A stretch of DNA of 58,366 nucleotides from a virus (lineage: Duplodnaviria; Caudoviricetes), in IMG/VR virus record IMGVR_UViG_3300045965_000268, positions 1 through 58,366 of that record. One strand, written 5' to 3'. The translations under genes were made by a program, and so were the position numbers. The stretch's first letter is position 1. Each line of letters begins with the position of its first letter. The notes below the pieces were generated by a model, which did no database searches, was not told where the DNA came from, and saw only the letters and a list, made by a program, of their open reading frames with translations. This document shows positions 6,275 through 50,348 of the stretch, piece by piece.

Positions 6275-8413
6275 TCAGGACAGGGTGACGGTGCCAGCGC
6301 GAACCTCGAGCTGCGCGTCTGCCAGCTCGATGGCCTGCGCCTGGTGGCTGACGTACAGCACGTGACGGAACCCGCCGAGCTGGGCGGAGCGGCGGAGCAT
6401 GCGGACGTACGCCGGGGCCCTGGCGACGTCCAGTGGCGCGGAAACCTCATCGCGGAGCAGGGTGCGGATCTGGCGTCCGGACCGGCTCGCGGTGTAGAGC
6501 GCCAGGGCCAGGGACAGCGCCTCGCTGACAAGCACCGACTCCCCGCCGCTGAGAAGGGCGGCATCAATCGGCTCCCCGCCCCGGCGCACGATGACGTCGA
6601 GCGTTTCGAGCTGGCGGTCCCCGTCGGCCGAGGCTCGCTGCGTTGTGAGCGAGATGGTGAAGACCTGTTCTCCGAAGCATGTCGTGAGGAGGTCCGTGGC
6701 GAGCCGTCCCAGCTCCGGCAGCGCCTGGTCGATGAGGAGTGCGGGGATCCCCGAGGGCCCGAACGCACGGCCCAGCAGGGCCCAATCGGCGACGTCGTCG
6801 GTGTGCACCGCCTCCCGGGCCCGGAGGTCGACGAGCAATCGGTCCGCTTCGTCGACCTTGTCGAGCTGGGCCCGTAGCCCGCCAAGAGTCTCCGCGAAGC
6901 TTTCGATCGAGAAGGCGTACCTGTTCAGCAACCCCTCTTCGATCTCGACGCCCTTCGTCGCGAAGGCTACGTTCTCGTCGAGTTGTGCAAGATCGGCGAG
7001 CCGTTCTTTCAATTCACCGCGCCGAGCGGTCTTCGTGGCGAGGTCGGCGTCGATCCGCTTCCGCTCCTCGGCACTGGCATCGATGCGTGCGTGGGCGGCG
7101 CTGAGGGCCGGCTGCTGCTCCGCCGCGGAGCGGTAGCGCGCCGCTTCCTGTTGCAGCATGGTCCGGCGGGCTACCAGGGGCTTCACCATGTCCGTCGTCG
7201 GCGAGGGGACCGGTGGCAGCGCGTCGAGCGCTTCGATGGCGAGGCGGGACGCTTCCTTCGCCGCCGGAAGCTTCGGCGTCGCCGCCTGGGCGTCCTTCAG
7301 GTACTGACAGGTCGCGTAGTTACCCTCGCCGCGGCACGGCACGGTCCCCAGCACCGAGACCTGCCGGCGGAGCTGCTCGTACTCCTTCGTCGTCTCGCGC
7401 GCCTTCGCGCCGGCGTGGCTCGCGGCGATCTCCGCCTGGGCGCGCAGCTTCGACTGTTCCGTGAACGCCGCTGTCGCCTTATCGATCTCCGCCGTGAGGT
7501 TCTCGACCTCACCCCGGATCACCGCGGTGCGCTCCACGGCGGCCCGGATCTCTCTCCCCATCGCCACGAGCTTCACGTCCGAGGCGCGTTCCTTCTCGAT
7601 GGCTCCGATCCTGCTGACAAATCCGGCCATCTCTACGTCGAGACGGCCCAGCTCGTCAGAAAGAGGCGCGACCGCGGCCCGCGCCTCCCGGGCCTTGATC
7701 AGATCTGTCCGAGCGATCTCCAGCGCTGCCCTGGCCCCGTTGGCGAGGTCGCGGGCCCGCTGGCTCTCCTGCTCCGCCGTGGCTCGCTGCTGCTCGATCA
7801 ACGGCCGGCGCGCTGCGATCGCGGCGAGGTCCGTGATGCGCTGACGCGTCGTGGCGAGGAGCACCTCGGCGCCGGCTCCGTGCGCCTTCGCCGTGGCCTG
7901 GTACTGCGTGAATCGCTGCAGGCCGAGCAACTCGCCGAGCAGGGCCTTGCGCTCGGGCCGCGGCAGCCGGAGGAAGGCGCCCACGCCCGTCTGGACGGAG
8001 TACATCGCCGCGAGCAGGAGCTCGGTCGGCCCGACGATGGCGTGGACCGACCGGCGGTAGTCTCGAATCAACGGACCCGCGATCATGGTGACGTCGTCCC
8101 CGTTGATCGCGTAGAGCGTCCCTTCCGTCCGCCCCGAGTGCGGATCGATGAGGAGCGCGCTGCGATAACACTGGCCGTCGGTCGACCATGTCAGGTCGAT
8201 GCGGCCCTTCGCGACGAAGTTGTGTGTGAGGGCGCCGGGCCGATACGGCATCTCGCCGCAGAACACCGCGACGATGCAGTCCATGATCATCGTCTTCCCG
8301 GCCCCGTTCACCCCGGAGACCGAGATCAACGACGGCGCGGCGTCGAAGTCGATGACGATCGGCGTGTGCGGAAAGGGATAGCTGCCGACGTGCTCGAATA
8401 GATGGAGGATCAT
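6275..8413 (-). CDS. sbcC: SbcC/Rad50-like SMC ATPase
   Basis: Walker A GVNGAGKT, long coiled coil, central Cys pair, LSGGE signature, Walker B LLRDE, YVSH H-loop. ATG 8413 overlaps the sbcD stop. Confidence 0.9.
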   Translation of the reverse strand: MILHLFEHVGSYPFPHTPIVIDFDAAPSLISVSGVNGAGKTMIMDCIVAVFCGEMPYRPGALTHNFVAKGRIDLTWSTDGQCYRSALLIDPHSGRTEGTLYAINGDDVTMIAGPLIRDYRRSVHAIVGPTELLLAAMYSVQTGVGAFLRLPRPERKALLGELLGLQRFTQYQATAKAHGAGAEVLLATTRQRITDLAAIAARRPLIEQQRATAEQESQRARDLANGARAALEIARTDLIKAREARAAVAPLSDELGRLDVEMAGFVSRIGAIEKERASDVKLVAMGREIRAAVERTAVIRGEVENLTAEIDKATAAFTEQSKLRAQAEIAASHAGAKARETTKEYEQLRRQVSVLGTVPCRGEGNYATCQYLKDAQAATPKLPAAKEASRLAIEALDALPPVPSPTTDMVKPLVARRTMLQQEAARYRSAAEQQPALSAAHARIDASAEERKRIDADLATKTARRGELKERLADLAQLDENVAFATKGVEIEEGLLNRYAFSIESFAETLGGLRAQLDKVDEADRLLVDLRAREAVHTDDVADWALLGRAFGPSGIPALLIDQALPELGRLATDLLTTCFGEQVFTISLTTQRASADGDRQLETLDVIVRRGGEPIDAALLSGGESVLVSEALSLALALYTASRSGRQIRTLLRDEVSAPLDVARAPAYVRMLRRSAQLGGFRHVLYVSHQAQAIELADAQLEVRAGTVTLS

Positions 8414-9501
8414 CCTTGCACCTCCGCGACCTTCGCCTGGACCCGCTCCGCGCGCGCCGGCGTCAGGTCCTGCTCCGTCGCCTCCGCCCACGCCGCCAGC
8501 TGGTCCTCGAGCCGCGTGCTCTGCGCGATCGCCGGGGTCCGGGTGCGCTCGGTCGGCACGACGATCTTCTCGAGGACGAAGTGGCTGGCGCGGTCGCGGA
8601 TCCCGTCGAAGACGGACGGCTCGAACGTGGCCACCTGGTCCTCGGGGATCTCGACGGTGACCTTGACCTCGGGCCTGTCGCCGCCCACGCTCTCGACCAG
8701 CGCTTCCAGGTAGGTATCCATCGGGGCCGTGATCGGCCAGGTCAGCTTGCGGACCACCATCTCCCGCGCCGGCAACGGCCGGTGCTCCCACGACGGAGCG
8801 AACCCATCGCCGACCGTGATCAGCACGTACGACTTGCGCTCAGCCGCCTCGGCAAAGGAGCAACGATAGAGGGAGCCGGCGATGACGACGTTGTCGCCGA
8901 TCGCCTGCCGGCGGTGAATGTGCCCGGTGACCACGAGCGAGGCCGGCGCGAGCGCGGCGAGCGGGACGACCATCTCATGGCCGACGTGGACTTCGTAATC
9001 GCTGTCGTTCAGGCGGGCCCCTTCCGGAGTCCAGTGGCCAGCGACGATGACGGGCTCCCTCGTTCCGGAGACCGTCTCCGCGATCGTCTCGGCCAGGAGC
9101 TGCGCGGAGTCCTTGTGCGTCTCGGCGCCGACGTAGGGCGCGTGTCCGCGTCGGGCGTAGGGCGCGAGCAGTAACGTGGCGCCGCGAAGTGGGACGGTGA
9201 CGAACTCGTCCCACGCCACCACGACGCCGAGGAACTCCAGCCAGCGCAGCGCATCCCTGGATTCGTGGTTCCCCGTGACCTCGAAGACGCTCCCGCGCTC
9301 CGCCATCCGCTTGTAGCGCATGCCGAGCGCCATGCGTTCCTCGCCGTTCGGGTCGCCCTCGCAGACGTCGCCGAGGCCGACGAACACCGACGCGCCTTGC
9401 TCGATCGCGTCCGTGATTGCGGCGTCCCAGACCTCCAGGGCGTGCTCGAAGCGAGGGCTGCGCAGGCTCACGTGGCGGTCGCCGAAGCAGGCGATCTTCA
9501 T
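8410..9501 (-). CDS. sbcD: SbcD/Mre11-like metallophosphoesterase nuclease
   Basis: GDRH, GD, GNHE, GH and GHIH calcineurin-like motifs; adjacent to SbcC. Confidence 0.9.
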   Translation of the reverse strand: MKIACFGDRHVSLRSPRFEHALEVWDAAITDAIEQGASVFVGLGDVCEGDPNGEERMALGMRYKRMAERGSVFEVTGNHESRDALRWLEFLGVVVAWDEFVTVPLRGATLLLAPYARRGHAPYVGAETHKDSAQLLAETIAETVSGTREPVIVAGHWTPEGARLNDSDYEVHVGHEMVVPLAALAPASLVVTGHIHRRQAIGDNVVIAGSLYRCSFAEAAERKSYVLITVGDGFAPSWEHRPLPAREMVVRKLTWPITAPMDTYLEALVESVGGDRPEVKVTVEIPEDQVATFEPSVFDGIRDRASHFVLEKIVVPTERTRTPAIAQSTRLEDQLAAWAEATEQDLTPARAERVQAKVAEVQG

Positions 9502-15456: not shown

Positions 15457-15530
15457 GCCCTCGTAGCTCAGGAGGAAAGAGCGTGGGGCCCGTACCCCTG
15501 AGGTCGCAGGTTCGAGTCCTGCCGAGGGCA
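15457..15530 (+). tRNA. tRNA-Thr(CGT), atypical anticodon arm, CCA not encoded
   Basis: Acceptor GCCCTCG/CGAGGGC+A; D arm GCTC/GAGC; anticodon arm TGGGG-CCCGTAC-CCCTG; T arm GCAGG-TTCGAGT-CCTGC. Confidence 0.85.
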
Positions 15531-15538
15531 CTTACCCT

Positions 15539-15567
15539 AGGGCACCCCTTCGGGGGTGCCCTTCCTT
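15539..15567 (+). terminator. Hairpin / probable intrinsic terminator after the tRNA
   Basis: AGGGCACCCC-TTCG-GGGGTGCCCT followed by a short pyrimidine run. Confidence 0.65.
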
Positions 15568-15894
15568 ACGATCCTCGCCTTGCCGCTCCGTGCGGTCAAG
15601 ATCCACCTCAACACGGATGTCTAGGTAAATACACACTTGACGGCGGCGAGATTACTCCGACCGTTCGTCAAGCTCCAAGTGAAAACTGTTGGCGCCAACA
15701 GACCGGACCGGCACCGTCATGCCGGAAGCGGAATTCTGGGCGCAAGATCTTTCGCGACGATCTGCACGGCCTGGACCTCCGAGCGGATGCCCAGCCACCA
15801 GCCGGACCTCGGCCCGCAACAAGCACACTCGAGGACATGTCGTCACAGGGCGGCGTCCGGGCCGTGAGACGGGTCGGCCGCGCCGGCACTCTAC

Positions 15895-15923
15895 TTGACA
15901 TTAGTTCATTATTGACGTATACT
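15895..15923 (+). promoter_or_regulatory. Near-consensus sigma70 promoter, leaderless transcript
   Basis: TTGACA-17 bp-TATACT, with the GTG start at 15930. Confidence 0.85.
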
Positions 15924-15929
15924 CCGACC

Positions 15930-16262
15930 GTGGCTGAGGTGCTCCCGTTCGACGACCCGAGCAACTACAGCACCGTGCTCCGGTCGATCCGACGGCTGTG
16001 GCACGAGGGCGCGGTCACCTTTCACGTCCACGCGGTGCGCGCGATGCAGCGCCGGCACCTCACGTTCCAGGACGTGGAGCACGTGCTCCTCCACGGCGAC
16101 ATCGTGGAGCACAACAGGCCGCGGACGGCCTGGCGGTGGAAGGTGCTCGGGCGCTGCCTCGACGAGGAGCGCCCCGCGTCCTGCGTGGTTCAGATCGAGC
16201 TGGAGGGGAGGCTGTTGATCATCACCGTGATTGACGAGACCAACGAAAGGGGGACGCCATGA
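15930..16262 (+). CDS. DUF4258-family putative toxin
   Basis: FHVHAVRAMQRRHLTFQDVEHVLLHGDIVE...WKVLG...LLIITV; directly upstream of the antitoxin-like gene. Confidence 0.8.
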   Translation: MAEVLPFDDPSNYSTVLRSIRRLWHEGAVTFHVHAVRAMQRRHLTFQDVEHVLLHGDIVEHNRPRTAWRWKVLGRCLDEERPASCVVQIELEGRLLIITVIDETNERGTP

Positions 16263-16768
16263 AGGTGTGCGACGTATGCGGGGGACCGATGACGGTCCGC
16301 CAGACCACGCCCACGGACCCATACGCGTACGTCCTGGGTGGGCTGCCGCGCGTCGGCCTGGTTGGGATCACTGTGCATCGCTGTACCGCGTGCGACGTCG
16401 ACGTGCCGACGATCCCTAAGATTGGCGAGCTACACCATGTGCTCGCTCGAGGGTTCCTCCGCAAGAACGGGCTGCTCGCCGGCGACGAACTGCGATTCAT
16501 TCGCAAGCAGGCGGGGTTCCGCGCGCAGGACTTCGCCGAGAAGATCGGGCTCGACCCCTCGTATCTCTCCCGCGTCGAGAACGGCAAGCTGGACAGCCTA
16601 GGGGAGACCTCGGACCGGTTGGCGCGCGCCGTCGCGGCCGCGGTGATCGACCCCGATCTTCTCAAGGAGATCGTGCTGCGTGCCGCCCTCGAGGGAACAC
16701 CGATCCGGAAGCCGCTGCAGGCGATCCTCAAGCGCAATCGGTGGAGTGCGGCAGAGCGTGCCGCGTGA
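16259..16768 (+). CDS. MqsA/YgiT-type zinc-finger + XRE HTH antitoxin
   Basis: CDVC...CTAC followed by ELRFIRKQAGFRAQDFAEKIGLDPSYLSRVENGK. Confidence 0.85.
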   Translation: MKVCDVCGGPMTVRQTTPTDPYAYVLGGLPRVGLVGITVHRCTACDVDVPTIPKIGELHHVLARGFLRKNGLLAGDELRFIRKQAGFRAQDFAEKIGLDPSYLSRVENGKLDSLGETSDRLARAVAAAVIDPDLLKEIVLRAALEGTPIRKPLQAILKRNRWSAAERAA

Positions 16769-16933
16769 GAGGCAGCAACGCCGACCCGGTGTCAGCCAGG
16801 TCGGCGCCTTGATGCGGGCGGCCCCGCGGGGACCTCGCCTCGGTGCGGGTGACGCTGTACCGAGTAACCCGTTGGGCCCGTCCGCGTCAAGAACTACGGG
16901 AGAGAGCATCCCCGGGAAAGGAGGACCCGCCGC

Positions 16934-17053
16934 ATGGGCGATGATCGCAAGATCGTGCATCGCGACTCGAAGTCCGGGCAGTTCACCACCAAGAAGTACG
17001 CCGACCGTCATCCGGCCACGACCGAGACGGAGCGCGTCCGCACCGGGAAGTAG
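16934..17053 (+). CDS. 39-aa basic peptide (RDSKSGQFT motif)
   Basis: AAGGAGG RBS; MGDDRKIVHRDSKSGQFTTKKYADRHPATTETERVRTGK; not in the ORF track. Confidence 0.65.
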   Translation: MGDDRKIVHRDSKSGQFTTKKYADRHPATTETERVRTGK

Positions 17054-17113
17054 TCCGGTAGTCTGAATCACCCCGGGCCCGAGCGAGGCGGGCCTATCCT
17101 ACTTCAGGGCAGC

Positions 17114-17350
17114 TTGACTTTGAGTGGTGACCTGAAGCTGCCGTACACGCTGACGCTGCGGCGTGATGAAGACGGCGACTGGATCGCCAGGGTGCAGGAG
17201 CTGCCGGGATGCACGGCAGACGGGCCGACGCGAGACGCAGCGCTCGCGGACCTGGACGTCGCGATGCGAGAGTGGCTGGAGGCGGCGGTCGAGCACGGGA
17301 TCACGGTGCCGACGCCGCAGGACGCTGGGCAACGGAGACCAGAGGACTGA
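17114..17350 (+). CDS. HicB-like antitoxin domain protein (no HicA partner)
   Basis: YTLTLRRDEDGDWIARVQELPGCTADGPTRDAALADLDVAMREWLEAAVEHGITVPTP. Confidence 0.85.
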   Translation: MTLSGDLKLPYTLTLRRDEDGDWIARVQELPGCTADGPTRDAALADLDVAMREWLEAAVEHGITVPTPQDAGQRRPED

Positions 17351-17560
17351 GCGTGAGGACAGCCGTGAACAACGCACAACTGCCGATCATCGCCTGCGAT
17401 CCCAGGGCCAGGGTGCTGGAGCATCCGATCTTCCAGGTCCTCGGACGGTACAGCGCCACGACGGTCGACCGGGTGCAGGACCGGCTCGGGAACGAGCGCT
17501 GCCTGACCGGCCTGCCGGCGGTGGCGTGCGCCTGCGGACGGTACCTGCTGGAGCGCCGAC

Positions 17561-17827
17561 ATGGCTGATAAGCCTAAGCCAACGGTACTGAACGTCGTGC
17601 GGTCCAACAGCGTGATGGTGGTCGTCGGCAACCACTTGCTGGATCGCGACGTGACGTGGCCGGACAAAGAAGGTCTGGTTGGAGGCGCGGGCCGGGTGCG
17701 AGGCTTGTTCACTTGGTATCGCGACGATTACGCTGAGTTCTATGCGTTGGTGGAGCAGGCCGACGGGAAGCTGGCGTCGGTTCAGCTTCACGAGTTGGTG
17801 TTCGCGCCGCTGCGGGATCCTGAGTGA
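17561..17827 (+). CDS. Hypothetical protein
   Basis: Protein-like ORF in the plus-strand island. Confidence 0.55.
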   Translation: MADKPKPTVLNVVRSNSVMVVVGNHLLDRDVTWPDKEGLVGGAGRVRGLFTWYRDDYAEFYALVEQADGKLASVQLHELVFAPLRDPE

Positions 17828-18160
17828 TGACGGTGAGCGATCCTGAGCCGACGAAGACGCAGGCGGCGGCCATGGAGCGCGGCATGCGTGAGATCGACGA
17901 GCTGGCGAGGCGGCCGCCTCGCGGCAAGGCTCCGAATCCCGAGGAGAAACTGGACCCGCTGGATGACGCTGCGAGCGGGTCTGCGACTGATGACTCACTC
18001 AAGTCCGGCCATGCCGCGCGGCTCAAGCTCATCGAGGTCGGGCCGAAGTACTTCGGGGGCAGGTAACGCGCACGTTCGACGTGCGTCCCGGGTGGGCACG
18101 GCTGCGCCGCCCGGGACACGTGCTGCCGTGCCGGCGCGGGAGCACCGGCGACGTAGGTAC

Positions 18161-18355
18161 CTAGGCACTCGGCGGGAGCTTCGCCGGCTCCAACGCCTGG
18201 ACCTGGGCGTCGATGTCGGCGAGGTTTGCCTTCATGTCGGCGAGCTGCTGCTCCGTGAGCGCCTCGCTCGTCTTGATCGCGGCGATCAACGACGGCAGGG
18301 CCCGGAGCATCTCGGTCGCCAGAGGCACGAGCACCGGGATCAGAGCGGCGGCCAT
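18161..18355 (-). CDS. Small helical protein at the end of the lysis cassette
   Basis: AGGAGG RBS; amphipathic helices. Confidence 0.6.
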   Translation of the reverse strand: MAAALIPVLVPLATEMLRALPSLIAAIKTSEALTEQQLADMKANLADIDAQVQALEPAKLPPSA

Positions 18356-18364
18356 GGGCGCCTC

Positions 18365-18736
18365 CTACTTCGCCGCCGGCACGACGCCGGCTGCGTACGC
18401 GTACGTGAGCGACTCACCGACCAGCGCCGCGGTCGCGGCTGACAGGGACGCCAGGTCGCCTGTCGGCGCGGCTGCGGTCCACGTCTTCACGAGCTGACCG
18501 TACGAGAACTTGAAGTGCGGCAGGAAGGCGTTCCATGCCTTGCAGGTATCGACGGAGATCTTCCCGGTCGGGCAGTGCTGGTTCATCGCGGCCGAGGTCG
18601 CGATCGCCGTCTTCCCCGCGAGCTGGAGCGCCTGATAGGTCCCCTGCTGCGCTTGCGCCTTCTTCCCGGCGTCGGTGCTCGCGCAGCCCGTCATCACGAG
18701 CAGCGCCACGATTGCGAGCGCGAGTACACGTCTCAT
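18365..18736 (-). CDS. Lipoprotein (possible spanin component)
   Basis: MRRVLALAIVALLVMTG-C lipobox; lysis-region context. Confidence 0.65.
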   Translation of the reverse strand: MRRVLALAIVALLVMTGCASTDAGKKAQAQQGTYQALQLAGKTAIATSAAMNQHCPTGKISVDTCKAWNAFLPHFKFSYGQLVKTWTAAAPTGDLASLSAATAALVGESLTYAYAAGVVPAAK

Positions 18737-18990
18737 GGATCTCTCCTCTCTTCCACCTGTCGGATCACTGTCGGTTCAGCGCGCGACGGATTGCCGTCGC
18801 CGCGTTTGCCCGTCACGGCGTGCGTGACGGCAATGGTGAGGATCGAGGTCGTCGCCGCGACAAACTGTTCTCCGGTGATCGCTCCACGCGTCAACGCGAT
18901 CACCACGCCGGTCTCGGCGAGATAGAACAGCCCGTAGCGAATGAGATGGTGCAGGACGTCATAAAACTGGACCACGAGCGATATCCTCAT
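18733..18990 (-). CDS. Small membrane protein, holin candidate
   Basis: Two hydrophobic segments and a charged C-terminus; downstream of the endolysin. Confidence 0.5.
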   Translation of the reverse strand: MRISLVVQFYDVLHHLIRYGLFYLAETGVVIALTRGAITGEQFVAATTSILTIAVTHAVTGKRGDGNPSRAEPTVIRQVEERRDP

Positions 18991-19192
18991 CCGGCCGCGT
19001 CCTCGGGTTGCACAACACAGGGTTGCTCCTCACGTTCCTCTGGCGTGAGCCGCCGCGGCTGCGTCCCGCGGTGCAACAGCCCGCAGAGGATCCGATTCGT
19101 ATCAGAGAAGCCGTCGTCGCTGGGAGAGGCGTGATGCTGGCAGAGCGACGAGTCGCTCGTGATCATCAGCCCGCACGACGCGCAGAGGCTAC

Positions 19193-19480
19193 TCACTTCG
19201 CGATCTCCTGCTCGAACACCTCGATGCGGCCGCGGTCGTCCGGCGCGTAGCACAAGAGCGACCGGAGCCCGTTCCCGTCGGCCCGGATGTAGAGACTCGG
19301 CGTGCACACCAGGGCCGGGATCCGCTTCGAGACGGGGACGGGAGGCGGCGTAGCGGCGCAGCCTCCCAGGGCGAGAAGGGCCACCACGAACCGTCCGATC
19401 GGCGGACGCGACGCCACGCAGCGAATACAGCGGCCGTGTACCTTCCATCCTCGATGCAGCAGCCAGCACAAGATGTTCAT
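19193..19480 (-). CDS. Putative lipoprotein (possible spanin component)
   Basis: FVVALLALGG-C lipobox followed by a Pro-rich segment; start overlaps the endolysin stop. Confidence 0.5.
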   Translation of the reverse strand: MNILCWLLHRGWKVHGRCIRCVASRPPIGRFVVALLALGGCAATPPPVPVSKRIPALVCTPSLYIRADGNGLRSLLCYAPDDRGRIEVFEQEIAK

Positions 19481-19893
19481 GGTCTCTGCTCCTCTGTGAT
19501 CTCGATCTCGATCCGCTGACCCGACTCCCAGGCCCAGCGGAGATGTGTGTAGAGCGCGTCGAACGCTGACCGGCTTTGCTGCACCGCATCGAACGAGCGG
19601 CTGCGCCCCGGGAGCAGACACCCATCGGTGTCGCGGTCCGTGTTGCCTGGATGAATCCGGATCCCCGTGAACCCGGGGACGTCGAGGAGCAGGGGAAGGT
19701 CGCGTTGGAACCTGCTGGAGCGGTCGATGATGACCCGGTAGGTACCGGTCGGGATCGCCGTCCGGCCCGGGATCTTTATCCCATTGGGCCGGACGACGTC
19801 CTCCAGGATGTAGCACTCGGGCACCCCGTCGACGGAGAGGTCACCGATGGTCGAGAGTGGAGTGAACCAGCGTCGAACGAGGCGGAGGGTCAA
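19477..19893 (-). CDS. DUF5675-family endolysin (peptidoglycan peptidase)
   Basis: STIGDLSVDG..CYILED, TAIPTGTY, VPGFTGIRIHPGNT..DTDGCLLPG. Confidence 0.88.
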   Translation of the reverse strand: MTLRLVRRWFTPLSTIGDLSVDGVPECYILEDVVRPNGIKIPGRTAIPTGTYRVIIDRSSRFQRDLPLLLDVPGFTGIRIHPGNTDRDTDGCLLPGRSRSFDAVQQSRSAFDALYTHLRWAWESGQRIEIEITEEQRP

Positions 19894-19896
19894 CGC

Positions 19897-20097
19897 TTAC
19901 CAGAGCCTCGGGTTGCCTAAGAGGCGGACGAGCCAGAAGCACACGATGATGGCGGCGATCGTCCAGATGCCCCAGATCGCCCAGGATCTCGGGGGCTCGG
20001 GCATCGGCGAGACCTTGATCCGCCAGACGACGATCCCGGCAACAGCGAACGCCACGAGCCCCCAGATCACGAGCCAGAGCAACGCCTCGATCGTCAT
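19897..20097 (-). CDS. Two-TM membrane protein, holin candidate
   Basis: Two hydrophobic helices separated by PMPEP; GGAGGG RBS; directly upstream of the endolysin. Confidence 0.6.
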   Translation of the reverse strand: MTIEALLWLVIWGLVAFAVAGIVVWRIKVSPMPEPPRSWAIWGIWTIAAIIVCFWLVRLLGNPRLW

Positions 20098-20111
20098 GGT
20101 TGGCCCTCCAT

Positions 20112-20963
20112 TCAGAAGACGCCTTGCGTCTTTATCAATGCGACCACGGCGCCGATCAGCAACACGGACAGCATGGCCGCGATGAGCCGGAGGCTCTGGT
20201 CCCGGAACCCGAGCCTGATACGGTGCGCCAGCGCCGTGAATTGCTCGACCCGGATCGTCTCCATCCGGGCCATCTCGGTCCGGAGCAGATCCTCGATCCG
20301 CTGGAACCCGCGTGCATCCTCGCCGCGGTGATCGCGCAGCTCCCCGCGCACCTCTCGCACGTCTTCCTTGATCGCCGAGACCTGGACGACGACCTCGGCC
20401 AGCGTCGTGGCCGGCGACGGATCCCCAGCCGCGCCGGCTTTCGTCAGGTAATACTCGACAGGCTCGACGAAGCCCTTCAGCTCCGTGACGCGCCTCGCAA
20501 GGCGAGCCAGGATCTCCGGGCGCCTCGCCAGCTCGGGGTAGAACCGCTCTGACACCGCTACGCCTTCCGGCAGGCAGACCGAGAGCAGGCGAGCGGTCAG
20601 ATCGACGATGGTTCCGTCGACCGTCGCATCCTCGGTGAACGGCTCGCCGTCCCAGGACACCACACCCAGCCCGAGCGCGATCCGGGCCGGGAGCGGGTCG
20701 GGGATCGCCTGCACGCGCAACGCATGCAGGAACACCTCGATGGCGAGGTCCGCCGGCGCCACGAAGAGCCAGCCGTCGCCCTGCCGGAGCCCGATCCGAC
20801 GCACCTGCGACGACAGACCGGCGAACTCATGTTCGAGACGACGCATCCGCTCTCGACGCTCCGCGATGCCGGCCAGCTCGCCTTCCTGGGCCGCTCTGGC
20901 CGTGGAGCCCGAGAGGTCCATGAAAAGGATGACCACCATCCCGGCCGTCTGGGCTGGTGTCAC
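20112..20963 (-). CDS. Class III nucleotide (adenylate/guanylate-type) cyclase domain + coiled coil + C-terminal TM helix
   Basis: ILFMDLSGST, QGDGWLFV, RIALGLG, VDGTIVDLTARL and ELKGF..PVEYY; C-terminal LIAAMLSVLLIGAVVALI. GTG 20963 overlaps the upstream stop. Confidence 0.88.
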   Translation of the reverse strand: MTPAQTAGMVVILFMDLSGSTARAAQEGELAGIAERRERMRRLEHEFAGLSSQVRRIGLRQGDGWLFVAPADLAIEVFLHALRVQAIPDPLPARIALGLGVVSWDGEPFTEDATVDGTIVDLTARLLSVCLPEGVAVSERFYPELARRPEILARLARRVTELKGFVEPVEYYLTKAGAAGDPSPATTLAEVVVQVSAIKEDVREVRGELRDHRGEDARGFQRIEDLLRTEMARMETIRVEQFTALAHRIRLGFRDQSLRLIAAMLSVLLIGAVVALIKTQGVF

Positions 20964-21340
20964 GGCACGAAGTCCACGTCGTACACGGGAAAGCTGACTG
21001 TCCATGACCCCTGCTTTGTCGAGTCGTACGTCGCCTTGATCAGCATGACGTGATACTCGACGGCGCGGCCGTCCACGACGATCGGGTTGTCGTCAGGAGT
21101 GAGCTGGATCTTCACGAGCCCGGCCGAGTCGATCGTGCCGCGGCCCGTGTTGAGGATCGACACGCCGTCCACGGAGTTGATCACCGCGACCGGCGCGTCC
21201 CGCGTGTAGAGCTTCAACGTGAGCGCCGAGATCCGGGCCACGTCGATCGCGACGCCGTCCTCGTCTCGCAGCGTGCCCTTGTAGAGGGCGCTCGTCTTCT
21301 GGTTGACACGGGTGCTGAACGCTCGATTGATCACGCCCAT
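20960..21340 (-). CDS. Virion structural protein, BppU N-terminal-like beta-sandwich
   Basis: TLRDEDGVAID...GTIDSAGLVKIQLTPDD pattern; late tail region. Confidence 0.55.
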   Translation of the reverse strand: MGVINRAFSTRVNQKTSALYKGTLRDEDGVAIDVARISALTLKLYTRDAPVAVINSVDGVSILNTGRGTIDSAGLVKIQLTPDDNPIVVDGRAVEYHVMLIKATYDSTKQGSWTVSFPVYDVDFVP

Positions 21341-21495
21341 CAGAGGCTCCCGAGGAACGTCTCGTCGTCAGCCGACGCGACGGTCAGCGACTCGTTCTGC
21401 ATGCGAATGAGGCCCGGGGTGACGACGGGGGGAGCGCCGCCGACCTCCGACGCTCCCCTGAGGAACCTGAAGAAGACGAGGTGCGTGAGAATCAT

Positions 21496-23940
21496 TTAGA
21501 CCTTCGACTTGAACCCGATGATCGTGACCTTGATCGACGTCAGCGAGGCGTCGGGATCCGCCGCGATCGCGGTGTTCGCGCTGAAGGGCAACGGCACGGG
21601 CGGGTTGAAGATCACGCCGGACTTCGACGGAGGCACCGGGAGCGTCAGCTTCACCGAGCCAGCGGTGCCGTCCCGGATGTCCACCTCGGCCGGCGTCGCC
21701 GAGGAGTTCGAGACCACGACCGAGGTGACGTAGATCTTCACGCCGGAGCCGGCCGCGGAGATCACCGAGGTCGACGAGCCGTCCGTGATCGTCGCCGTCC
21801 CGGTCACGATGTCTTCCAGGTTGCAGTGCGGCCGGACGATCTGCACCCCGTCGACGCCGTGATACCCATCCGTGACGTCGTTGTTGGCGACCAGGGTGAC
21901 GCCGGAGAGGGCCGTCGTCGCCTTGCCGCCCGTCTTCACCGGCGCGTCGGCGTCGGCGCTGTCGTGTGCCACGGTGCCCTTGACGCCAGGCATCGAGGCG
22001 ATGTCGACGTCACCGATGTTGTTATTCCCGGCCGGCAACGCCGGCAAGGTCAGCACGTCGACGTCGCCGATGTTGTTGGTACCCGCCGGCAGGGCCGGCA
22101 GGGTCAGGACGTCGACGTCACCGATGTTGTTGGTGCCTGCCGGCAGGGCCCCGGTCTGCGCCGTCAGCAGCGCGTTCGAGGCGTTGACGTTGGCACCGCG
22201 CTCGTTGCCGGCCGCGTCCCGGAGCGTCGTGTAGAGGTTCCGGTTCGCCGACATGCGCACGGCCCCGGCATCGCCCTCGTCGACGCTGTCCGTGGCGGCG
22301 TCGTCGAACTCGGCCCCGAACATCTGGAGCTTGGTCGTGCCGGGCGAGAACGCCGCGTCGTCGGTGATGATCGAGTCGTCGATCAGCTCCGTCGACGTCT
22401 TGATCGCGTTGAGCGTGGTCTCCGTCGCCGCACCAGTCGGCAGCGGGAGCGACGAGGCGGAAATCGGCTGGGTGACGCCGGAGCCGTTGACGTGTAGCCG
22501 GCCGCTGGCGTCGACCTGGAGCTGCGTACGATCCCCGTCCGTGTCGACCAGGGTCGCCGCCGTGTCCTTCCGGACGACGCCGGCCATGGTGATCTTGTCG
22601 GCCGCCGTGGAGACGGTGTCCTCGTCGTACTGCGTTCCGCCGCCGACCGAGACCTCGGTGCCGGAGGCGTCGCGGAGGTTGACGTGGAAGGCCCGGTTCG
22701 TGGTCATCCGGGCAATGCCCATCTCGCCCTCGGCGAGCGTGTCGGACGCCGCGTCGTCCCGGGCGCCCATGATCGGCGTTCCGGCCGTGGAGGCGGCCGT
22801 GAAGGCGGCGCTGTCCGTCGCCGAGGTGCCGCCTGAGCCGCCTCCGGCCACGATGTTGACCCGGAGGGCATCGTTGGTATCGTCCATCGCGGAGTCGCCG
22901 TTCGGCGTCTCCAGCGCCGCCAGCATGGCCCGGCTCGCCGTCATGGCGAAGGCGCCGCCGTCGTTGTCGTTGACCGTGTCCCGGGCGGACTTGAAGGTGC
23001 CGCCGACCGGCGTGAACGACGTCGAGCCCACGGTGAAGGCGGCGTCGTCCGTCATCGCCGTGCCGCCTGAGCCAGCTCCGGCCACGATGTTGACCCTGAC
23101 GGCGTTGTTGCCGCCGTCCATGACCGAGTCGCCCGCGTCGTCCCGGAGGTTGACGTGCAGGGCCCGGGCGAGGGTCATCCGGAGCGCGCCGGCATCGCCC
23201 TCGTCGACGCTGTCCGGCGCCGCCTCGTCGGCGAAGGCGCCCACGACGAGCACCCGGTCCGAGGCTGGCGTGAACGCGGCGTCGTCGACCTTCGAGGCGT
23301 TGTCCTGCACCCCGAGGGTGCCGGTACCGGCGTTGGCCGTCACGGTGCCTGAGACCGTGAAGGTGCCGCTGCCAGCGTTCGCCGTCACCGTACCGGAGAC
23401 TGGCTGGGTCGTCGTCCCGGTCGGGTCGACCCGGAGCGGATCCGTCGAGGTGCCGCCAGCGACCGCGCCACCGGACTTCGGCAGCGCGACGCCCATCATC
23501 ACGACGGTGTCGGTGCCGCCGCCGGTGTCGTAGTCGGCCGTCTTCGCCGTCGCCGCCGCGACCGAGCCCGTCGGCAGCGTGGCGACGTCGACGTCACCGA
23601 TGTTGTTGTTGCCAGCGGGGAGCGCCGGCAAGGACGCGACGTCAACGTCGCCGATGTTGTTGTTCCCGGCGGGGAGCGCCGGCAGCGAGAGCACATCCAC
23701 GTCGCCGATGTTGTTCGTGCCGGCCGGGATCGCGGCGCCGAGCGTGACCGACCCGTCGACCGTGATCGAGTTCCCGCCGTCCTGGATCGGGAGCGCCGCC
23801 GCGCCGGCCGCGACGTCCGTGGCGACGCCGTCGGCGCCCCATACCTGCTTGGTCCGAGGGTAGTGCGTGCCGCTGATGTCATCAGTAGCGAACACTGCTC
23901 CCGGCGTCGTGACCGATTCAGCCGCTACATTGTCAGCCAT
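21496..23940 (-). CDS. Tail fibre / long repetitive virion protein
   Basis: A/G/T/D-rich 814 aa; six (L/I)PAG(N/T)NNIGDVD repeats; recurring DDAAFT and DSVDEGDAGA modules. Confidence 0.75.
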   Translation of the reverse strand: MADNVAAESVTTPGAVFATDDISGTHYPRTKQVWGADGVATDVAAGAAALPIQDGGNSITVDGSVTLGAAIPAGTNNIGDVDVLSLPALPAGNNNIGDVDVASLPALPAGNNNIGDVDVATLPTGSVAAATAKTADYDTGGGTDTVVMMGVALPKSGGAVAGGTSTDPLRVDPTGTTTQPVSGTVTANAGSGTFTVSGTVTANAGTGTLGVQDNASKVDDAAFTPASDRVLVVGAFADEAAPDSVDEGDAGALRMTLARALHVNLRDDAGDSVMDGGNNAVRVNIVAGAGSGGTAMTDDAAFTVGSTSFTPVGGTFKSARDTVNDNDGGAFAMTASRAMLAALETPNGDSAMDDTNDALRVNIVAGGGSGGTSATDSAAFTAASTAGTPIMGARDDAASDTLAEGEMGIARMTTNRAFHVNLRDASGTEVSVGGGTQYDEDTVSTAADKITMAGVVRKDTAATLVDTDGDRTQLQVDASGRLHVNGSGVTQPISASSLPLPTGAATETTLNAIKTSTELIDDSIITDDAAFSPGTTKLQMFGAEFDDAATDSVDEGDAGAVRMSANRNLYTTLRDAAGNERGANVNASNALLTAQTGALPAGTNNIGDVDVLTLPALPAGTNNIGDVDVLTLPALPAGNNNIGDVDIASMPGVKGTVAHDSADADAPVKTGGKATTALSGVTLVANNDVTDGYHGVDGVQIVRPHCNLEDIVTGTATITDGSSTSVISAAGSGVKIYVTSVVVSNSSATPAEVDIRDGTAGSVKLTLPVPPSKSGVIFNPPVPLPFSANTAIAADPDASLTSIKVTIIGFKSKV

Positions 23941-23967
23941 TGCGTGTCACTCCCCCCGACAGGTTGT

Positions 23968-24669
23968 TCACGAACCCACGACTCCGACGATGGTGGTCCC
24001 GCCGCCAGCAGCAGGCGCCAACACCTCGACCGAGATCACCGCCCAGTTGCGTACCGTCGTTGTGAATGTCCATCCGATGCCAGCCGTGTCTGCCCCGCGT
24101 GTCGGCGCGAGCGTGGCGAGGGCGCCGATCACGTTGTTGCCAGCCGTGGCGGATGTCGTCTGATCGATCCGTTGTTCGGTGATGCCGCCGTCTTCGGTGA
24201 TCGCCTCGGTCGAGTTGAGCTTGCACACGAAGAGGAGCCCGAGAGCATCGGCCCGGCACACCGCGGCGATCCTTGGAACCAAGTTGTTCCCGTTCGAGAA
24301 GCGGACGTCGTACGCGTTACTCCCGCTCCCAGCCCCGGTCGGTGGCGCCACGGAGCCAGTGACCGAAGCACACGAGCCGACCATGCGGGCGCTCGCCGAG
24401 GGCGTGAACACTGCCGGGTTGCTTCCCGTGGCCGGGCTGTTCAGCGCCCAGACTTCCATGTTGACCGCGGTCTGGGTCGCCTCCCGGCCGATCATCGTGG
24501 AGTCAACGTCGTTGTACTTGACCGTCGAACCGACTTCGCCTGCCGGCGTGCGCAGATGCAGACCGAAGAAGGCGACGGTCCCGGCACTATTGACGAACGT
24601 CACCGACAGGTTCGCCGCCGCGTTGTTTCCGGTGTCGTCGATCGCTGTGGAGTCGAGCGCCACGGCCAT
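23968..24669 (-). CDS. Putative virion structural protein
   Basis: Ala/Thr/Gly-rich, beta-strand pattern; GGAGGG RBS. Confidence 0.65.
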   Translation of the reverse strand: MAVALDSTAIDDTGNNAAANLSVTFVNSAGTVAFFGLHLRTPAGEVGSTVKYNDVDSTMIGREATQTAVNMEVWALNSPATGSNPAVFTPSASARMVGSCASVTGSVAPPTGAGSGSNAYDVRFSNGNNLVPRIAAVCRADALGLLFVCKLNSTEAITEDGGITEQRIDQTTSATAGNNVIGALATLAPTRGADTAGIGWTFTTTVRNWAVISVEVLAPAAGGGTTIVGVVGS

Positions 24670-25128
24670 CTAGGCAACCCTCCTGACCACCACGCGCCAG
24701 GGGAGTTCTCGCTGTGCCTCGATCCCGTAGGGCGCCAGGCCGATCGCGGCATGATGCAACGCCGCTCCTTCAGCGAAGGTGAGCGGGACCGCACCGGGGC
24801 GCACGGACACCGCCCCCGTCACCTTGTTCACCGACAGCGCGTTCGGCGCCCAGAGGATGTCGCCGCGGACCGGATGATGGTGGAGCCAGTGCCCTTCGAG
24901 GCCCCGCTGATGCGCGTCGCTCACGTCTTCCGGCATGAGGTCGCGCGTCGGGTGCTCGGTGTCGTACTGCTCGAACTCGCCCGCGACCCACTCGCCGCGA
25001 AGCATCTGTTCCAGCGGAAGCATGTACATCCACCATCCACTCCGGTACTGCGTCCGGGTCAGCGGAACGATCCGGCCGTACTTGTGCCGGGCCCAGAAGG
25101 CGCGCGGGAGTCGCTTGACGTAGCGCAT
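24670..25128 (-). CDS. Hypothetical protein
   Basis: ATG overlaps the upstream stop; its stop abuts the next start. Confidence 0.55.
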   Translation of the reverse strand: MRYVKRLPRAFWARHKYGRIVPLTRTQYRSGWWMYMLPLEQMLRGEWVAGEFEQYDTEHPTRDLMPEDVSDAHQRGLEGHWLHHHPVRGDILWAPNALSVNKVTGAVSVRPGAVPLTFAEGAALHHAAIGLAPYGIEAQRELPWRVVVRRVA

Positions 25129-47650: not shown

Positions 47651-48664
47651 TCAGATTCCCCTCCGTGCCAGCAACCCCGCGATCACCAACCACGGGATCG
47701 AGGTCTGAGGCAACGCTGCCGGGAAGTGCCCCATCGCACACACGAGCGCCGCAACCATCGCCCCAGTCACCGGATCACCGAACGCCATCCCCGGCGCCAA
47801 CGTCCATCCCCAGAGCCCGAGCGCGAGCATCCCGAGGAGCCCGTACTCGAATAACGTCTCGACGAGGTCGTTGTGCGCGGTCGTGAAGACCTCGACCGTC
47901 GCCCCGGCCGCCCGGTTCCAATACGTGGCATCGCGCCGCCACGCCCCCGGACCCAGACCGAAGAAGATCGCCGGCCAGCCCCCACGCACCACGGCCGCGA
48001 GCCCGAGCTGCCACGCTCGCACACGCGCGCGCCACGAATCCCCGGCGCGACGACGGTACCAGCAGACCACGAAGAGTGCCGGCGCCGAGACAAGAAACGC
48101 CGGCACCATGAGCGTCGGATGCGCCACGAAGAACCCGAACAGCGCAGCCGCGACGCCGACGTAGGACGCGGTCACGACCAGACCGACGACGAAGAGCGGC
48201 AGAATCCAGAGCGGCGCCAGCGGAACGGCCATCGCGATCAACGTCGCCAGGACAACGCGCCCCGTCATCGCCGCACTCGCCGCGTCGCGCGCCTGGTACG
48301 GCGTCTGCCCCGCGCGAAGGGCCAGCACGTACTGAACGATCCCCAACACGGTTTGCACCGCAGCACCGGCGACGATCGCGTGCGGCAGCACCGTCTCCAG
48401 GGCCCGGGGCCCGTAGAGCACGGCCACGTACAGCAGCCCGAGCCCCGCCCACGTCAGCACCGCGCCGGTCTGGTGCGGGCCGATCCAGCGAGCCAGCGCG
48501 CACGCAAAGAAGATCCCCGGGCCCGGGGCAACGACGAAGAGCGCGAGGGCGCCAGCCCAAGCGAACGCGAGCAGCATCCGATCCCGCGCATGGCCCGTCG
48601 TCGGGCCGGCGTTCGCAAAGGGCGCCGCGATCAAGAGCGCCGCGAGCGCGATCGTCAGCGTCAT
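47651..48664 (-). CDS. O-antigen ligase / Wzy_C family polytopic membrane protein
   Basis: Many TM helices and the S..ARVRAW...IFFGLGPGAW...AHNDLVETLFEYGLLG signature. Confidence 0.85.
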   Translation of the reverse strand: MTLTIALAALLIAAPFANAGPTTGHARDRMLLAFAWAGALALFVVAPGPGIFFACALARWIGPHQTGAVLTWAGLGLLYVAVLYGPRALETVLPHAIVAGAAVQTVLGIVQYVLALRAGQTPYQARDAASAAMTGRVVLATLIAMAVPLAPLWILPLFVVGLVVTASYVGVAAALFGFFVAHPTLMVPAFLVSAPALFVVCWYRRRAGDSWRARVRAWQLGLAAVVRGGWPAIFFGLGPGAWRRDATYWNRAAGATVEVFTTAHNDLVETLFEYGLLGMLALGLWGWTLAPGMAFGDPVTGAMVAALVCAMGHFPAALPQTSIPWLVIAGLLARRGI

Positions 48665-49323
48665 GCCCCCCACCTCCGGGCCCGCTCGTACACGGCCGAG
48701 AACGCGAGCAGCACGAGCACCGGCAGGAACAGCAGGATCCCGATCAGGCACACGAGCCCGCTCGGCTCCTCGTGCGGATCCCGCTCTCCCCAGGCCCGCG
48801 CCGCGTGATGCTCCGCGCACTCGCCCTCGCACCACATCATCCCGGAACGGTCCATCACGCGACGCGCACGGCTCGCCGGCTTGCCACACACACCGCAGAT
48901 CATCGTGTCGACCAGCTCAGGATGAAGGTCGAAGAGCTGCGCGCACACGCGCATCGGGCCCGGCATCACTGCGACGGCCCCGGCAGGAAGCGGAGCAACG
49001 CGAAGAGGATCGCGAAGAGGATCACCGTCGTGAGCCCGGCGAACATCGTCGAGAATCGCTGCTCTTCGTGGCAGAGCGCACACTCGCACTCGCGGCCGTG
49101 CAGCATCAGCTCCGCTCTCCGTTCGCCTCGTTGCAGGCGCCGGTATGGGGCTCGCCTCGCCAGAGCTGCGCCAGGCAGAACCCGCACGTCAGCGTGAACA
49201 CCTCGGCGTCGCGATTGCCGCGGTTCATGTCCTCGACGAGGTCGGCGGCGTTCCACGGCGCGATACGCGGCCGCCGACGCCGCAAGATCACCACACGCTC
49301 CAACCGGAGCGTCGGCCGCCGGT

Positions 49324-49908
49324 TCAGGCTGCGATGATCTTCCATCCCGTCGTCCTCGACTCGCGGTACGGGCTCCCGGGCCCGAACCAGGCGAACACGC
49401 GCAGCGCGAACGCGCGCCGCCACGCAACGAGCTGGCCGATCGTGGCGCGCGCATCTTCGAGGGGCCACACCCCGAGCACGTGAAAGCCCGCCTCCATCAG
49501 CTCGCGACGCCAGCCACCCTCGGTCAACCGCATCGCGCCCTCGTGCACGCCGACGCACGGCCAGAGGTAGGGATCCGTGATCAGCAGTCGGCCGCCGGGT
49601 TGAAGCACGCGACGAATCTCGCGCAACGCCGGTTGCAGCTCGCACGGCCGCAGCAGGTACAACACCTCGGCACACCGCACGATCTCCAGCGACTCGTCGG
49701 CGAGCGGGATGTCGAGGACGGAGCCCTTCAGGTAGCACACGCCGCTGCGCCGCTGATCCTCCGCCGGCAGATCCGAGTCGAGCACCGACCACTCGCCGAC
49801 ACCGTTGTACGGTCGATGCCCTCCGCCGACGTCGAGCCCGCACACCGGGAACGATCGCGGTAGCGACTCGCGGAAGAAAGCGTCGATGGCGGCTCGGTGC
49901 GAGGTCAT
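49324..49908 (-). CDS. Class I SAM-dependent methyltransferase (Methyltransf_11-like)
   Basis: LDVGGG, GSVLDIPLADES, EVLY and ALREIRRVLQPGGRLLITDP. Confidence 0.88.
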   Translation of the reverse strand: MTSHRAAIDAFFRESLPRSFPVCGLDVGGGHRPYNGVGEWSVLDSDLPAEDQRRSGVCYLKGSVLDIPLADESLEIVRCAEVLYLLRPCELQPALREIRRVLQPGGRLLITDPYLWPCVGVHEGAMRLTEGGWRRELMEAGFHVLGVWPLEDARATIGQLVAWRRAFALRVFAWFGPGSPYRESRTTGWKIIAA

Positions 49909-50348
49909 GGCGGCGAGAGGAGTGCGAGGAGGAACGCCAGGAGCATCACCGTCAAGAGCAACGCCATCGCCACGCCGCATGCCCAGACGTCCCGCGGGTC
50001 GCTCAAGCAGTGTTGCTCCCCGCCAACGTCGGCAACGCAGCGCGGCCGGTCAGCTCGGCGATGATTCGCTCCAGCGCCTCGACCCGCAGCTCCAGCGCGA
50101 CGACGCGGGTCAGCGCGGTACGCGCGATCTCGCTGTCCGACTTCACGCGCAGCTCGAACGGCGCATCGTTCATGCCGGCCAGCCCGGCGTCGGCCCGAGC
50201 AGCGTGAACATCACGTCGCCGCTCCGTCCAACACAGCTCGCCGTCACGACCGCATCGGGATACTTCTTCGCGAGGTGCTCTCGCACCTGCTCCACGGTTC
50301 GCTGCGCCACGTCGAGGTCGCGCCGGCTGAACGTAAGAGTGCGCACGG

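Follow-up and report, generated by a model that had tools for sequence, protein, structure and literature searches.

In the textbook account, the timing of phage lysis is set by the accumulation of holin, with antiholins acting in a few phages. To our knowledge, a nucleotide second messenger forms no part of this picture. What, then, might a cyclase-type domain do in a gene that lies directly ahead of putative lysis genes? The locus that raises this question belongs to an uncultured soil phage, represented by the IMG/VR record IMGVR_UViG_3300045965_000268, which was analyzed over its full length of 58,366 bp (hereafter, the window). A gene on the minus strand of this record encodes a protein of 275 amino acids (aa) in which a class III cyclase homology domain (CHD) is followed by a helical stalk and then by a transmembrane (TM) helix at the C-terminus (Table 1). 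In this work, we confirmed the observation made in a preliminary description of the sequence, namely, that a membrane-anchored CHD is located ahead of candidate lysis genes. Its catalytic activity, its product, and its role in lysis are matters that we infer from the sequence.

Homology and fold of the cyclase domain

A phmmer search of 1.84 billion representative sequences with the CHD protein as the query returned 70 matches at E ≤ 1e-3, including 18 at E ≤ 1e-10, and a further homologue search added no relatives beyond this set. To avoid circularity, a profile (A2) was built from only the 19 best of these matches. In a comparison with the PDB, A2 matched 12 distinct sequences at E ≤ 0.01, every one of them a class III cyclase. 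The best E-values were obtained for 3mr7 (9.8e-11), Ma1120 (1.2e-8), Rv1900c (6.3e-8), and Rv1264 (2.5e-7). PF00211 has no match in the whole record even at E ≤ 10, and it is matched at E ≤ 1 by five of the 19 closest relatives (best 3.3e-6). The nearest cluster in the ESM Atlas (1,722 members, 99% viral, PF00211 on 45%) has a score of 0.87, which lies below the 0.9 mark and is taken as a lead only.

Structure prediction gave the same picture. The AlphaFold2 (AF2) model made with a 49-row alignment has a mean predicted local distance difference test (pLDDT) value of 88.7. Within the domain the value is about 96, and every 10-residue block of residues 1-160 lies at 92-98; a model from the single sequence (pLDDT 48.5) was not used. 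Foldseek found 189 PDB matches at E ≤ 0.001. Its listed top matches are all class III cyclases (CyaB, CyaC, Ma1120, and Rv1900c), with a probability of 1.00, E-values of about 1e-10 to 1e-9, target TM-scores of 0.75-0.81 (0.79-0.81 to Ma1120 and Rv1900c), and root-mean-square deviations of 2.8-3.2 Å. The assignment to the class III fold, which had been proposed from sequence motifs, is borne out by the A2 profile, the AF2 model, and Foldseek alike, and we regard fold and homology as a class III nucleotidyl cyclase domain as settled.

Catalytic residues and a clade of short proteins

Residues were assigned from HMMER alignments to Ma1120 and Rv1900c and from column counts. Both metal-binding aspartates are intact, as had been stated earlier: Asp8 (FMDLSGST) and Asp55 (LRQGDG) are aligned to the aspartates that Ma1120 has in its FTD and GDG motifs. 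The catalytic Arg (Arg117, in VDLTAR) and the triphosphate Lys (Lys155, in ELKGF) are also present. The protein therefore resembles Ma1120 (4wp9, 5d0h, and 5d15), the CHD of Rv1900c/LipJ (1ybt and 1ybu), and 3mr7 in its fold, in detectable homology, and in the metal Asp pair, the Arg, and the triphosphate Lys. It differs from them in having Leu at the adenine-contacting position and an insertion of ~6 residues before the DG...R segment. Unlike these proteins, it is also phage-borne, belongs to a late operon, carries a C-terminal stalk and anchor, and falls into a separate clade of short proteins.

This clade was recovered in a maximum-likelihood tree of 70 domains, which splits 35/35 with support of 100/99 and places the window protein on the short-protein side. 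All 35 proteins in the clade are 176-326 aa long, and 17 of the 35 on the other side exceed 500 aa. Despite identities of only ~25-38%, the clade keeps Asp55 and Arg117 in 35/35 members, Asp8 in 34/35, and a basic residue (Lys or Arg) at position 155 in 29/35. The sole gap at Asp8 is in P0024, at its start; the match listed for this protein covers the query only from residue 52 onwards. By these counts, two-metal and triphosphate chemistry is under strict selection in the clade, with non-canonical base-reading positions. Such conservation of Asp8, Asp55, Arg117, and Lys155 at low identity is what two-metal catalysis on a triphosphate, more than mere binding, would lead one to expect. A hydrophobic segment (19-residue scan) follows the domain in 27/35 members, located either at the extreme C-terminus, as in the window protein, or straight after the domain. 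The members that were looked up are all metagenomic (JGI, ENA, and Logan), and two of them carry the source label "class 3 adenylate cyclase."

Protein architecture and comparison with XhlA

In the AF2 model, the part that follows the domain forms helices at residues 176-203 and 209-274, with a stalk pLDDT of 71-86. Residues 248-275, which are the last 28 residues, form the sole strongly hydrophobic segment of the protein. Because an Arg-rich stretch precedes the TM helix and only ~6 residues follow it, the protein is probably tail-anchored, with the CHD in the cytoplasm. The architecture claimed in the preliminary description, a coiled coil followed by a single C-terminal TM helix, thus holds with regard to the helices and the single hydrophobic segment, but the coiled coil is kept as a candidate because only weak coiled-coil-type matches were found for the stalk. 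Class III cyclases are well known and need a dimeric active site. A complex prediction for two copies of residues 1-172 gave a score of 0.28, below the 0.42 mark for an answer, and this value says nothing either way on dimerization.

The same region invites comparison with the lysis accessory protein XhlA. In XhlA, a helical segment is followed by a C-terminal TM helix, and the last 100 residues of the window protein resemble this topology. The two proteins differ in that the window protein has an enzyme-type domain and XhlA has none. In the Bacillus subtilis prophage PBSX, the gene order is xhlA-xhlB-xlyA, and XhlA is described as required for lysis (PMC6834076). Similarly, the window gene is located after tail-region genes and directly before holin and wall hydrolase candidates in a late operon. 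No sequence match to XhlA was found for the whole protein (Pfam, E ≤ 1) or for its C-terminal 105 aa (Pfam, E ≤ 10; PHROGs, E ≤ 0.1), and the latter search of Pfam gave only a chance-level viral match. The suggested likeness to XhlA and holin accessories therefore stands for architecture and gene position but not for sequence, which matches no lysis family.

Gene model and expression

The record appears complete, with direct terminal repeats (DTR) and a G+C content of 67.7%, and an integrase gene at its left end (58-1122) identifies the phage as temperate. A long run of late genes occupies the minus strand, with genes for the portal, an HK97-type capsid, and the tape-measure protein followed by tail-region genes and a gene for an 814-aa fibre-like protein. 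The closest phage matches of the capsid protein are <36% identical and are spread over many host groups.

The longest form of the open reading frame (ORF) of the CHD gene covers 20112..21005 (minus strand), and three start candidates were considered: ATG 21005, GTG 20963, and ATG 20939. The Met encoded at 20939 (MVVILFMD...) is the N-terminus in most of the 30 aligned relatives. Public gene calls give 275 aa (P0001, which starts at 20939) and 297 aa. Because most aligned relatives and P0001 begin there, ATG 20939 is probably the true start, 20 nucleotides (nt) past the upstream stop. The GTG start at 20963, for which translational coupling to the upstream gene had been proposed, does overlap the TGA of the upstream ORF, but a start at 20939 with a gap of 20 nt is more likely.

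With a GC content of 0.68 and a third-position GC content (GC3) of 0.86, the CHD gene is like the other late genes and does not appear foreign. No promoter-like sites were found on the minus strand in 17000-24200. Given the matching GC and GC3 and the lack of a promoter-like site on this strand, late co-expression with the lysis genes would be the simplest reading. The start codon lies within a terminator-like hairpin (20946-20931), which is treated as a chance occurrence because four such hairpins were observed against 2.0 ± 1.3 expected. Metatranscriptome libraries of three studies contain contigs that match the region at 99-100% identity, and one contig of 2,627 bases spans 18311-20937. These contigs carry no strand, level, or end information and the libraries may contain DNA, such that no conclusion on transcription is drawn from them. 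In one of the libraries, two contigs (18311-20937 and 20934-21939) meet exactly at the CHD start codon and the small hairpin (20934-20937); RNA ends are unreadable in such data, and this is recorded as an observation and not as evidence.

Neighbouring genes and the candidate lysis cassette

Upstream of the CHD gene lie the genes for the 814-aa fibre-like protein and a 126-aa protein (Table 1). In the former, several nearly identical repeats of the LPALPAGNNNIGDVDV type are arranged in two blocks, and phrog_9224 is its only family match. The ESM Atlas clusters near the 126-aa protein (scores of 0.96-0.97) are 89-95% viral, and LtfC or BppU_N is annotated on a minority of the members of clusters near it, which serves as a lead only. 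The 126-aa gene is plausibly a tail-associated or tail-region gene.

Downstream, a gene for a 66-aa protein starts 14 nt past the CHD stop codon and is preceded by GGAGGG; no curated family matches this holin candidate. The DUF5675 gene begins 3 nt later. The DUF5675 protein has His81 and Cys92 within the motif IHPGNTDRDTxGC. On structural grounds, the family has been called C82 (YkuD)-like, and its function is given as unknown (bioRxiv 10.64898/2026.04.11.717860). Phage_lysozyme, Amidase_2, SLT, and Peptidase_M15_4 have no match in the record at E ≤ 0.1, and the lone GH19 match falls short of the cut-off and is interrupted by a stop. Because of the conserved His/Cys motif and because these other wall-hydrolase families were not found, the DUF5675 protein is the best endolysin candidate, and it is the only recognizable wall-hydrolase candidate in the record. 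The position of the CHD gene directly before a holin candidate and an endolysin candidate agrees with what had been described earlier.

A 95-aa lipoprotein gene follows, with an ATG that overlaps the DUF5675 stop (ATGA) and GAGGAG upstream; no family match was found for its product. The spanin-like position of this gene may point to an outer membrane in the host. Two further envelope genes, encoding proteins of 123 aa and 64 aa (18161..18736), may be part of the end of the lysis cassette; their products gave only weak matches of signal-peptide and lipoprotein type. It is fair to describe the CHD gene as heading the lysis cassette, a label that rests on these candidate assignments.

Table 1. 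Coordinates of the CHD gene, its parts, and the neighbouring genes in the window, with the CHD gene of a second phage (L002)
Feature	Position	Strand	Basis or remark
CHD gene, whole (CHD, helical stalk, and C-terminal TM; 275 aa)	20112..20939	-	ORF list, start candidates, relatives; stop codon 20112-20114
Class III CHD, residues 1-166	20442..20939	-	A2 profile versus PDB, AF2, Foldseek, column counts
Helical stalk, coiled-coil candidate, residues 176-247, rich in Arg/Glu/Leu/Val	20199..20414	-	AF2 helices, composition
C-terminal TM helix, within residues 248-275	20115..20198	-	Kyte-Doolittle, 19-residue scan, maximum 2.58
66-aa protein, two hydrophobic helices (TM 1-32 and 38-65), holin candidate	19897..20097	-	TM scan
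DUF5675 protein, 138 aa, endolysin candidate	19477..19893	-	PF18925 E 6.4e-31; phrog_1501 E 4e-20
95-aa lipoprotein gene, lipobox LALGGC, spanin-like position	19193..19480	-	Nested in longer ORF 19193-19816
123-aa lipoprotein, LMTGC	18365-18736	-	Translation, TM scan; weak signal-peptide/lipoprotein-type matches only
64-aa protein, hydrophobic N-terminus and helical tail	18161-18355	-	Translation, TM scan
Upstream 126-aa gene, phage-only small protein family	20960..21340	-	No Pfam, PHROG, or NCBIfam match
814-aa fibre-like protein, repeated LPALPAGNNNIGDVDV-type motifs	21496..23940	-	Translation; phrog_9224 E 4.9e-22, function unknown
L002 CHD, 212 aa, soluble	L002 6664-7302		PF00211 31.4 bits versus cut-off 21.9, KxxGDG kept

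Proposed function and the substrate positions

Taken together, the evidence leads us to prefer, tentatively and with somewhat more doubt than conviction, the reading that the protein is an active cyclase, dimerized by its stalk and anchor, that its product at the membrane is a cyclic nucleotide whose base is not predictable, formed while the lysis proteins build up, and that the protein acts on lysis timing or on late host physiology. The protein would be made late, alongside the lysis proteins, and the stalk would pair two copies to form the dimeric active site. A nucleoside triphosphate (NTP) would then be converted to a cyclic nucleotide and pyrophosphate. Either the protein or its product would act at the inner membrane during holin accumulation, the position held by XhlA in PBSX, and the outcome could be a tuned burst time or changes in host physiology as the infection ends.

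A number of observations weigh against this reading, and those on the substrate positions come first. Canonical adenylyl cyclases have a Lys and Asp/Thr specificity pair and an Asn-Arg pair, and guanylyl cyclases have Glu at the Lys position. The earlier claims that this Lys is replaced and that the Asn has become Asp were both confirmed by alignment. The window protein has Leu51 where Ma1120 has the base-specifying, adenine-contacting Lys (VKSQGDG), and thus neither the Lys of adenylyl nor the Glu of guanylyl cyclases. At the Asp/Thr position, where Ma1120 has Asp, it has Thr106, and Asp113 occupies the Asn column four residues before the catalytic Arg (VDLTAR). Across the clade, Lys is found at the specificity position in only 2/35 members (Pro in 11, Glu in 5, Ala in 4, Leu in 3, and others), compared with 13/35 of the other matches. 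The Asp/Thr position is variable within the clade. The Asn position holds Asn in 17/35 and Asp in 8/35 members, compared with Asn in 27/35 and Asp in 5/35 of the other matches. In the printed alignments, the same column has Ala in Ma1120 and His in Rv1900c (1ybt). Because Asp occurs there in 5/35 canonical multi-domain CHDs and Rv1900c and Ma1120 have His and Ala, the Asp of the window protein is, as judged from these alignments, not disqualifying. By the same comparison, the absent Lys is a real departure from canonical cyclases, and because it is missing from nearly all of the clade, the base is not readable from the sequence.

A clade with such relaxed substrate positions may bind nucleotides rather than cyclize them. 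The protein would then be a sensor and not an enzyme: a CHD lacking productive base binding that serves as an NTP or metal sensor on an XhlA-like holin accessory and ties lysis to the nucleotide or energy state of the cell, with no messenger involved. We consider this unlikely. The absence of Lys in 33/35 clade members, the retention of Asn in only 17/35, and the variable second specificity position are all as such a sensor would have them. Furthermore, the C-terminal stalk and anchor and the place before a holin-like gene resemble a lysis accessory, as in the PBSX order reported for xhlA (PMC6834076). The stalk or anchor regions of two clade members also have weak PHROG matches to lysis-type families, namely, residues 190-268 of P0010 to an Rz-like spanin (E 0.0018) and residues 189-250 of P0015 to "hemolysin" (E 0.051); neither match is significant, and coiled-coil composition may account for both. 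However, the C-terminal part of the window protein itself has no match to any lysis family. In addition, the metal aspartates and the catalytic Arg are invariant and Lys/Arg155 is kept in most of the clade, a degree of conservation that argues for catalysis.

Linkage in other phages

Whether the association of a CHD with lysis genes recurs was surveyed in 81 DUF5675-bearing viral records, which were fetched from the lysin side. Further on the negative side, PF00211 was found in 1/81 of these records (1/50 + 0/31), and the hidden Markov models (HMMs) of the clade detected nothing else within 6 kb of DUF5675 in these loci. Because 80/81 of the records lack PF00211, a CHD is optional for a lysis cassette of the DUF5675 type, and a cyclase-holin-endolysin synteny is not a common module.

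The single positive record, IMGVR_UViG_2162886013_000024 (L002), is 44 kb long, is rated 100% complete, and shares 0/10 of the other window proteins tested. Its lysis cluster (L002 5690-7868) has the order C1q-type fibre gene, 103-aa gene, DUF5675, 68-aa protein, 212-aa CHD, and two small hydrophobic proteins. The DUF5675 homologue is 47% identical to that of the window, with the His/Cys motif invariant between the two, and in the 68-aa protein, a hydrophobic helix at the N-terminus precedes a helical tail. As in the window, a CHD is found among lysis-type genes by DUF5675, and a small protein with TM and helical parts is encoded just upstream of the CHD. Unlike that of the window, the L002 CHD passes the PF00211 cut-off, keeps the Lys of KxxGDG, has no anchor of its own, and is located after DUF5675. 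Its similarity to the clade is weak (hhalign E 0.062; A5n HMM E 0.0022). The comparable parts, membrane/helical and CHD, thus appear to be separate in L002 and fused in one chain in the window. Of the synteny that the preliminary description had anticipated, one further CHD in a lysis cluster was therefore found, but it belongs to another lineage, and the remaining records have none. The window and L002 represent two independent cases of a CHD among lysis genes, which is suggestive and not statistical. A bolder proposal would be that class III cyclase domains were taken up into the lysis cassettes of several unrelated phage lineages and that here the domain was fused to an XhlA-like stalk, with a non-canonical cyclic nucleotide, produced late in infection at the inner membrane, that sets the holin clock or cues the lysis proteins as a second messenger; we regard this as doubtful.

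Searches beyond the survey also returned little. The CHD protein alone is not recognized by Pfam, NCBIfam, PHROGs, or PADLOC. Pattern-based locus searches of IMG/VR (P0001, P0002, P0003, P0082, P0010, and alignment A4) retrieved no clade member, and near-identical records are possibly hidden from such searches. No relative was found in GTDB genomes with A4 and the portal protein as queries, or in JGI metagenome contigs with A4 and P0003. A tblastn search of 50,697 GenBank phage records gave no match for three short CHDs (P0001, P0015, and the L002 CHD) or for two canonical CHDs (P0033 and P0022). Positions 17000-25000 of the window likewise had no megablast match among GenBank phage records.

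Another possibility is that the CHD gene is an accessory gene unrelated to lysis, which acts in host regulation of the cyclic AMP (cAMP) or cyclic GMP (cGMP) type, in phage exclusion, or in counter-defence, the tail-lysis junction being a permissive insertion site. An accessory gene is expected to be optional, as the CHD is in the 80/81 records, and the neighbouring proteins of the window have no BLASTP match in the DUF5675 viral loci. Moreover, the same phage has another envelope-modifying accessory gene, encoding a Wzy_C-like protein, and the adenylate cyclase in the curli module of pelagiphages is treated, in its description, as an auxiliary and not a lysis gene (PMC9599517). Against an insertion of this kind, the CHD gene has no promoter or terminator signal of its own, is tightly spaced on both sides (20 nt and 14 nt), and is not foreign in composition, and a second, unrelated CHD lies inside the lysis cluster of L002. 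On balance, we consider this accessory role unlikely, though slightly less so than the sensor role.

Relation to known phage cyclases and Pycsar

A phage-encoded adenylate cyclase of the class III type has been described in uncultured pelagiphages, where it belongs to a curli (type VIII secretion system, T8SS) cluster (Wittmers et al., 2022, PMC9599517). By its description (PMC9599517), that cyclase is set apart by its curli/FecR/histidine-kinase neighbours, whereas the window protein is a tail-anchored protein of 275 aa that lacks such partners. In full-text searches of the literature, no paper turned up that describes a tail-anchored CHD or places a cyclase domain within the lysis cassette of a phage.

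Among bacterial systems, the Pycsar cyclase PycC combines a class III-type fold with non-canonical base selection, and a kinship to it had been suggested for the CHD protein. If this were so, the gene would be a Pycsar-type defence cyclase carried by the phage, an idea compatible with the non-canonical specificity residues and with a temperate phage (integrase at 58-1122). The results speak otherwise. Neither the CHD protein nor three of its neighbours matched any PADLOC model at E ≤ 1. The A1 profile matched the solved uridylate cyclase 8jsz at E 0.064, compared with 7.8e-20 for adenylyl-cyclase-type domains. The record contains no cyclic nucleoside monophosphate (cNMP)-binding domain (PF00027, E ≤ 1) that could belong to a Pycsar effector, and the gene is located in a late operon and not in a defence island. 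A defence cyclase of this type is therefore very improbable, and the suggested kinship was not upheld. The lack of PF00027 also counts among the points against the preferred reading of an active cyclase, as no cNMP receptor is recognizable in the phage.

Other genes in the record

Several additional genes were noted. The Wzy_C-like gene (47651-48889, minus strand) encodes a membrane protein of 412 aa with a match to Wzy_C (O-antigen ligase) of 30.9 bits versus a cut-off of 31.7 bits (E 2.7e-7). A small S-adenosylmethionine (SAM) methyltransferase is encoded nearby (49324-49980), and both could be accessory genes that modify the surface. At the end of the lysis region, a gene for a DUF4258-domain protein (15483-16262) and a gene for a small HicB/UPF0150-like protein (17114-17350) form a possible toxin-antitoxin-type pair (15483-17350); they lie on the plus strand and thus face away from the late genes. 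In the early region (6275-9501, minus strand), adjoining genes for an SMC_N/AAA_23 protein (838 aa) and a calcineurin-like phosphoesterase (363 aa) form a pair that is SbcCD-like.

Implications

The finding defines a clade of short, tail-anchored CHD proteins that Pfam misses. Because their substrate positions differ from those of every canonical adenylyl or guanylyl cyclase, the product of this clade could be new. With a membrane-tethered and catalytically equipped CHD encoded together with candidates for holin and lysin as one unit, second-messenger control of lysis would become directly testable. If the bolder proposal of a messenger that sets the holin clock is true, phage lysis would gain a signalling layer that is absent from the literature searched.

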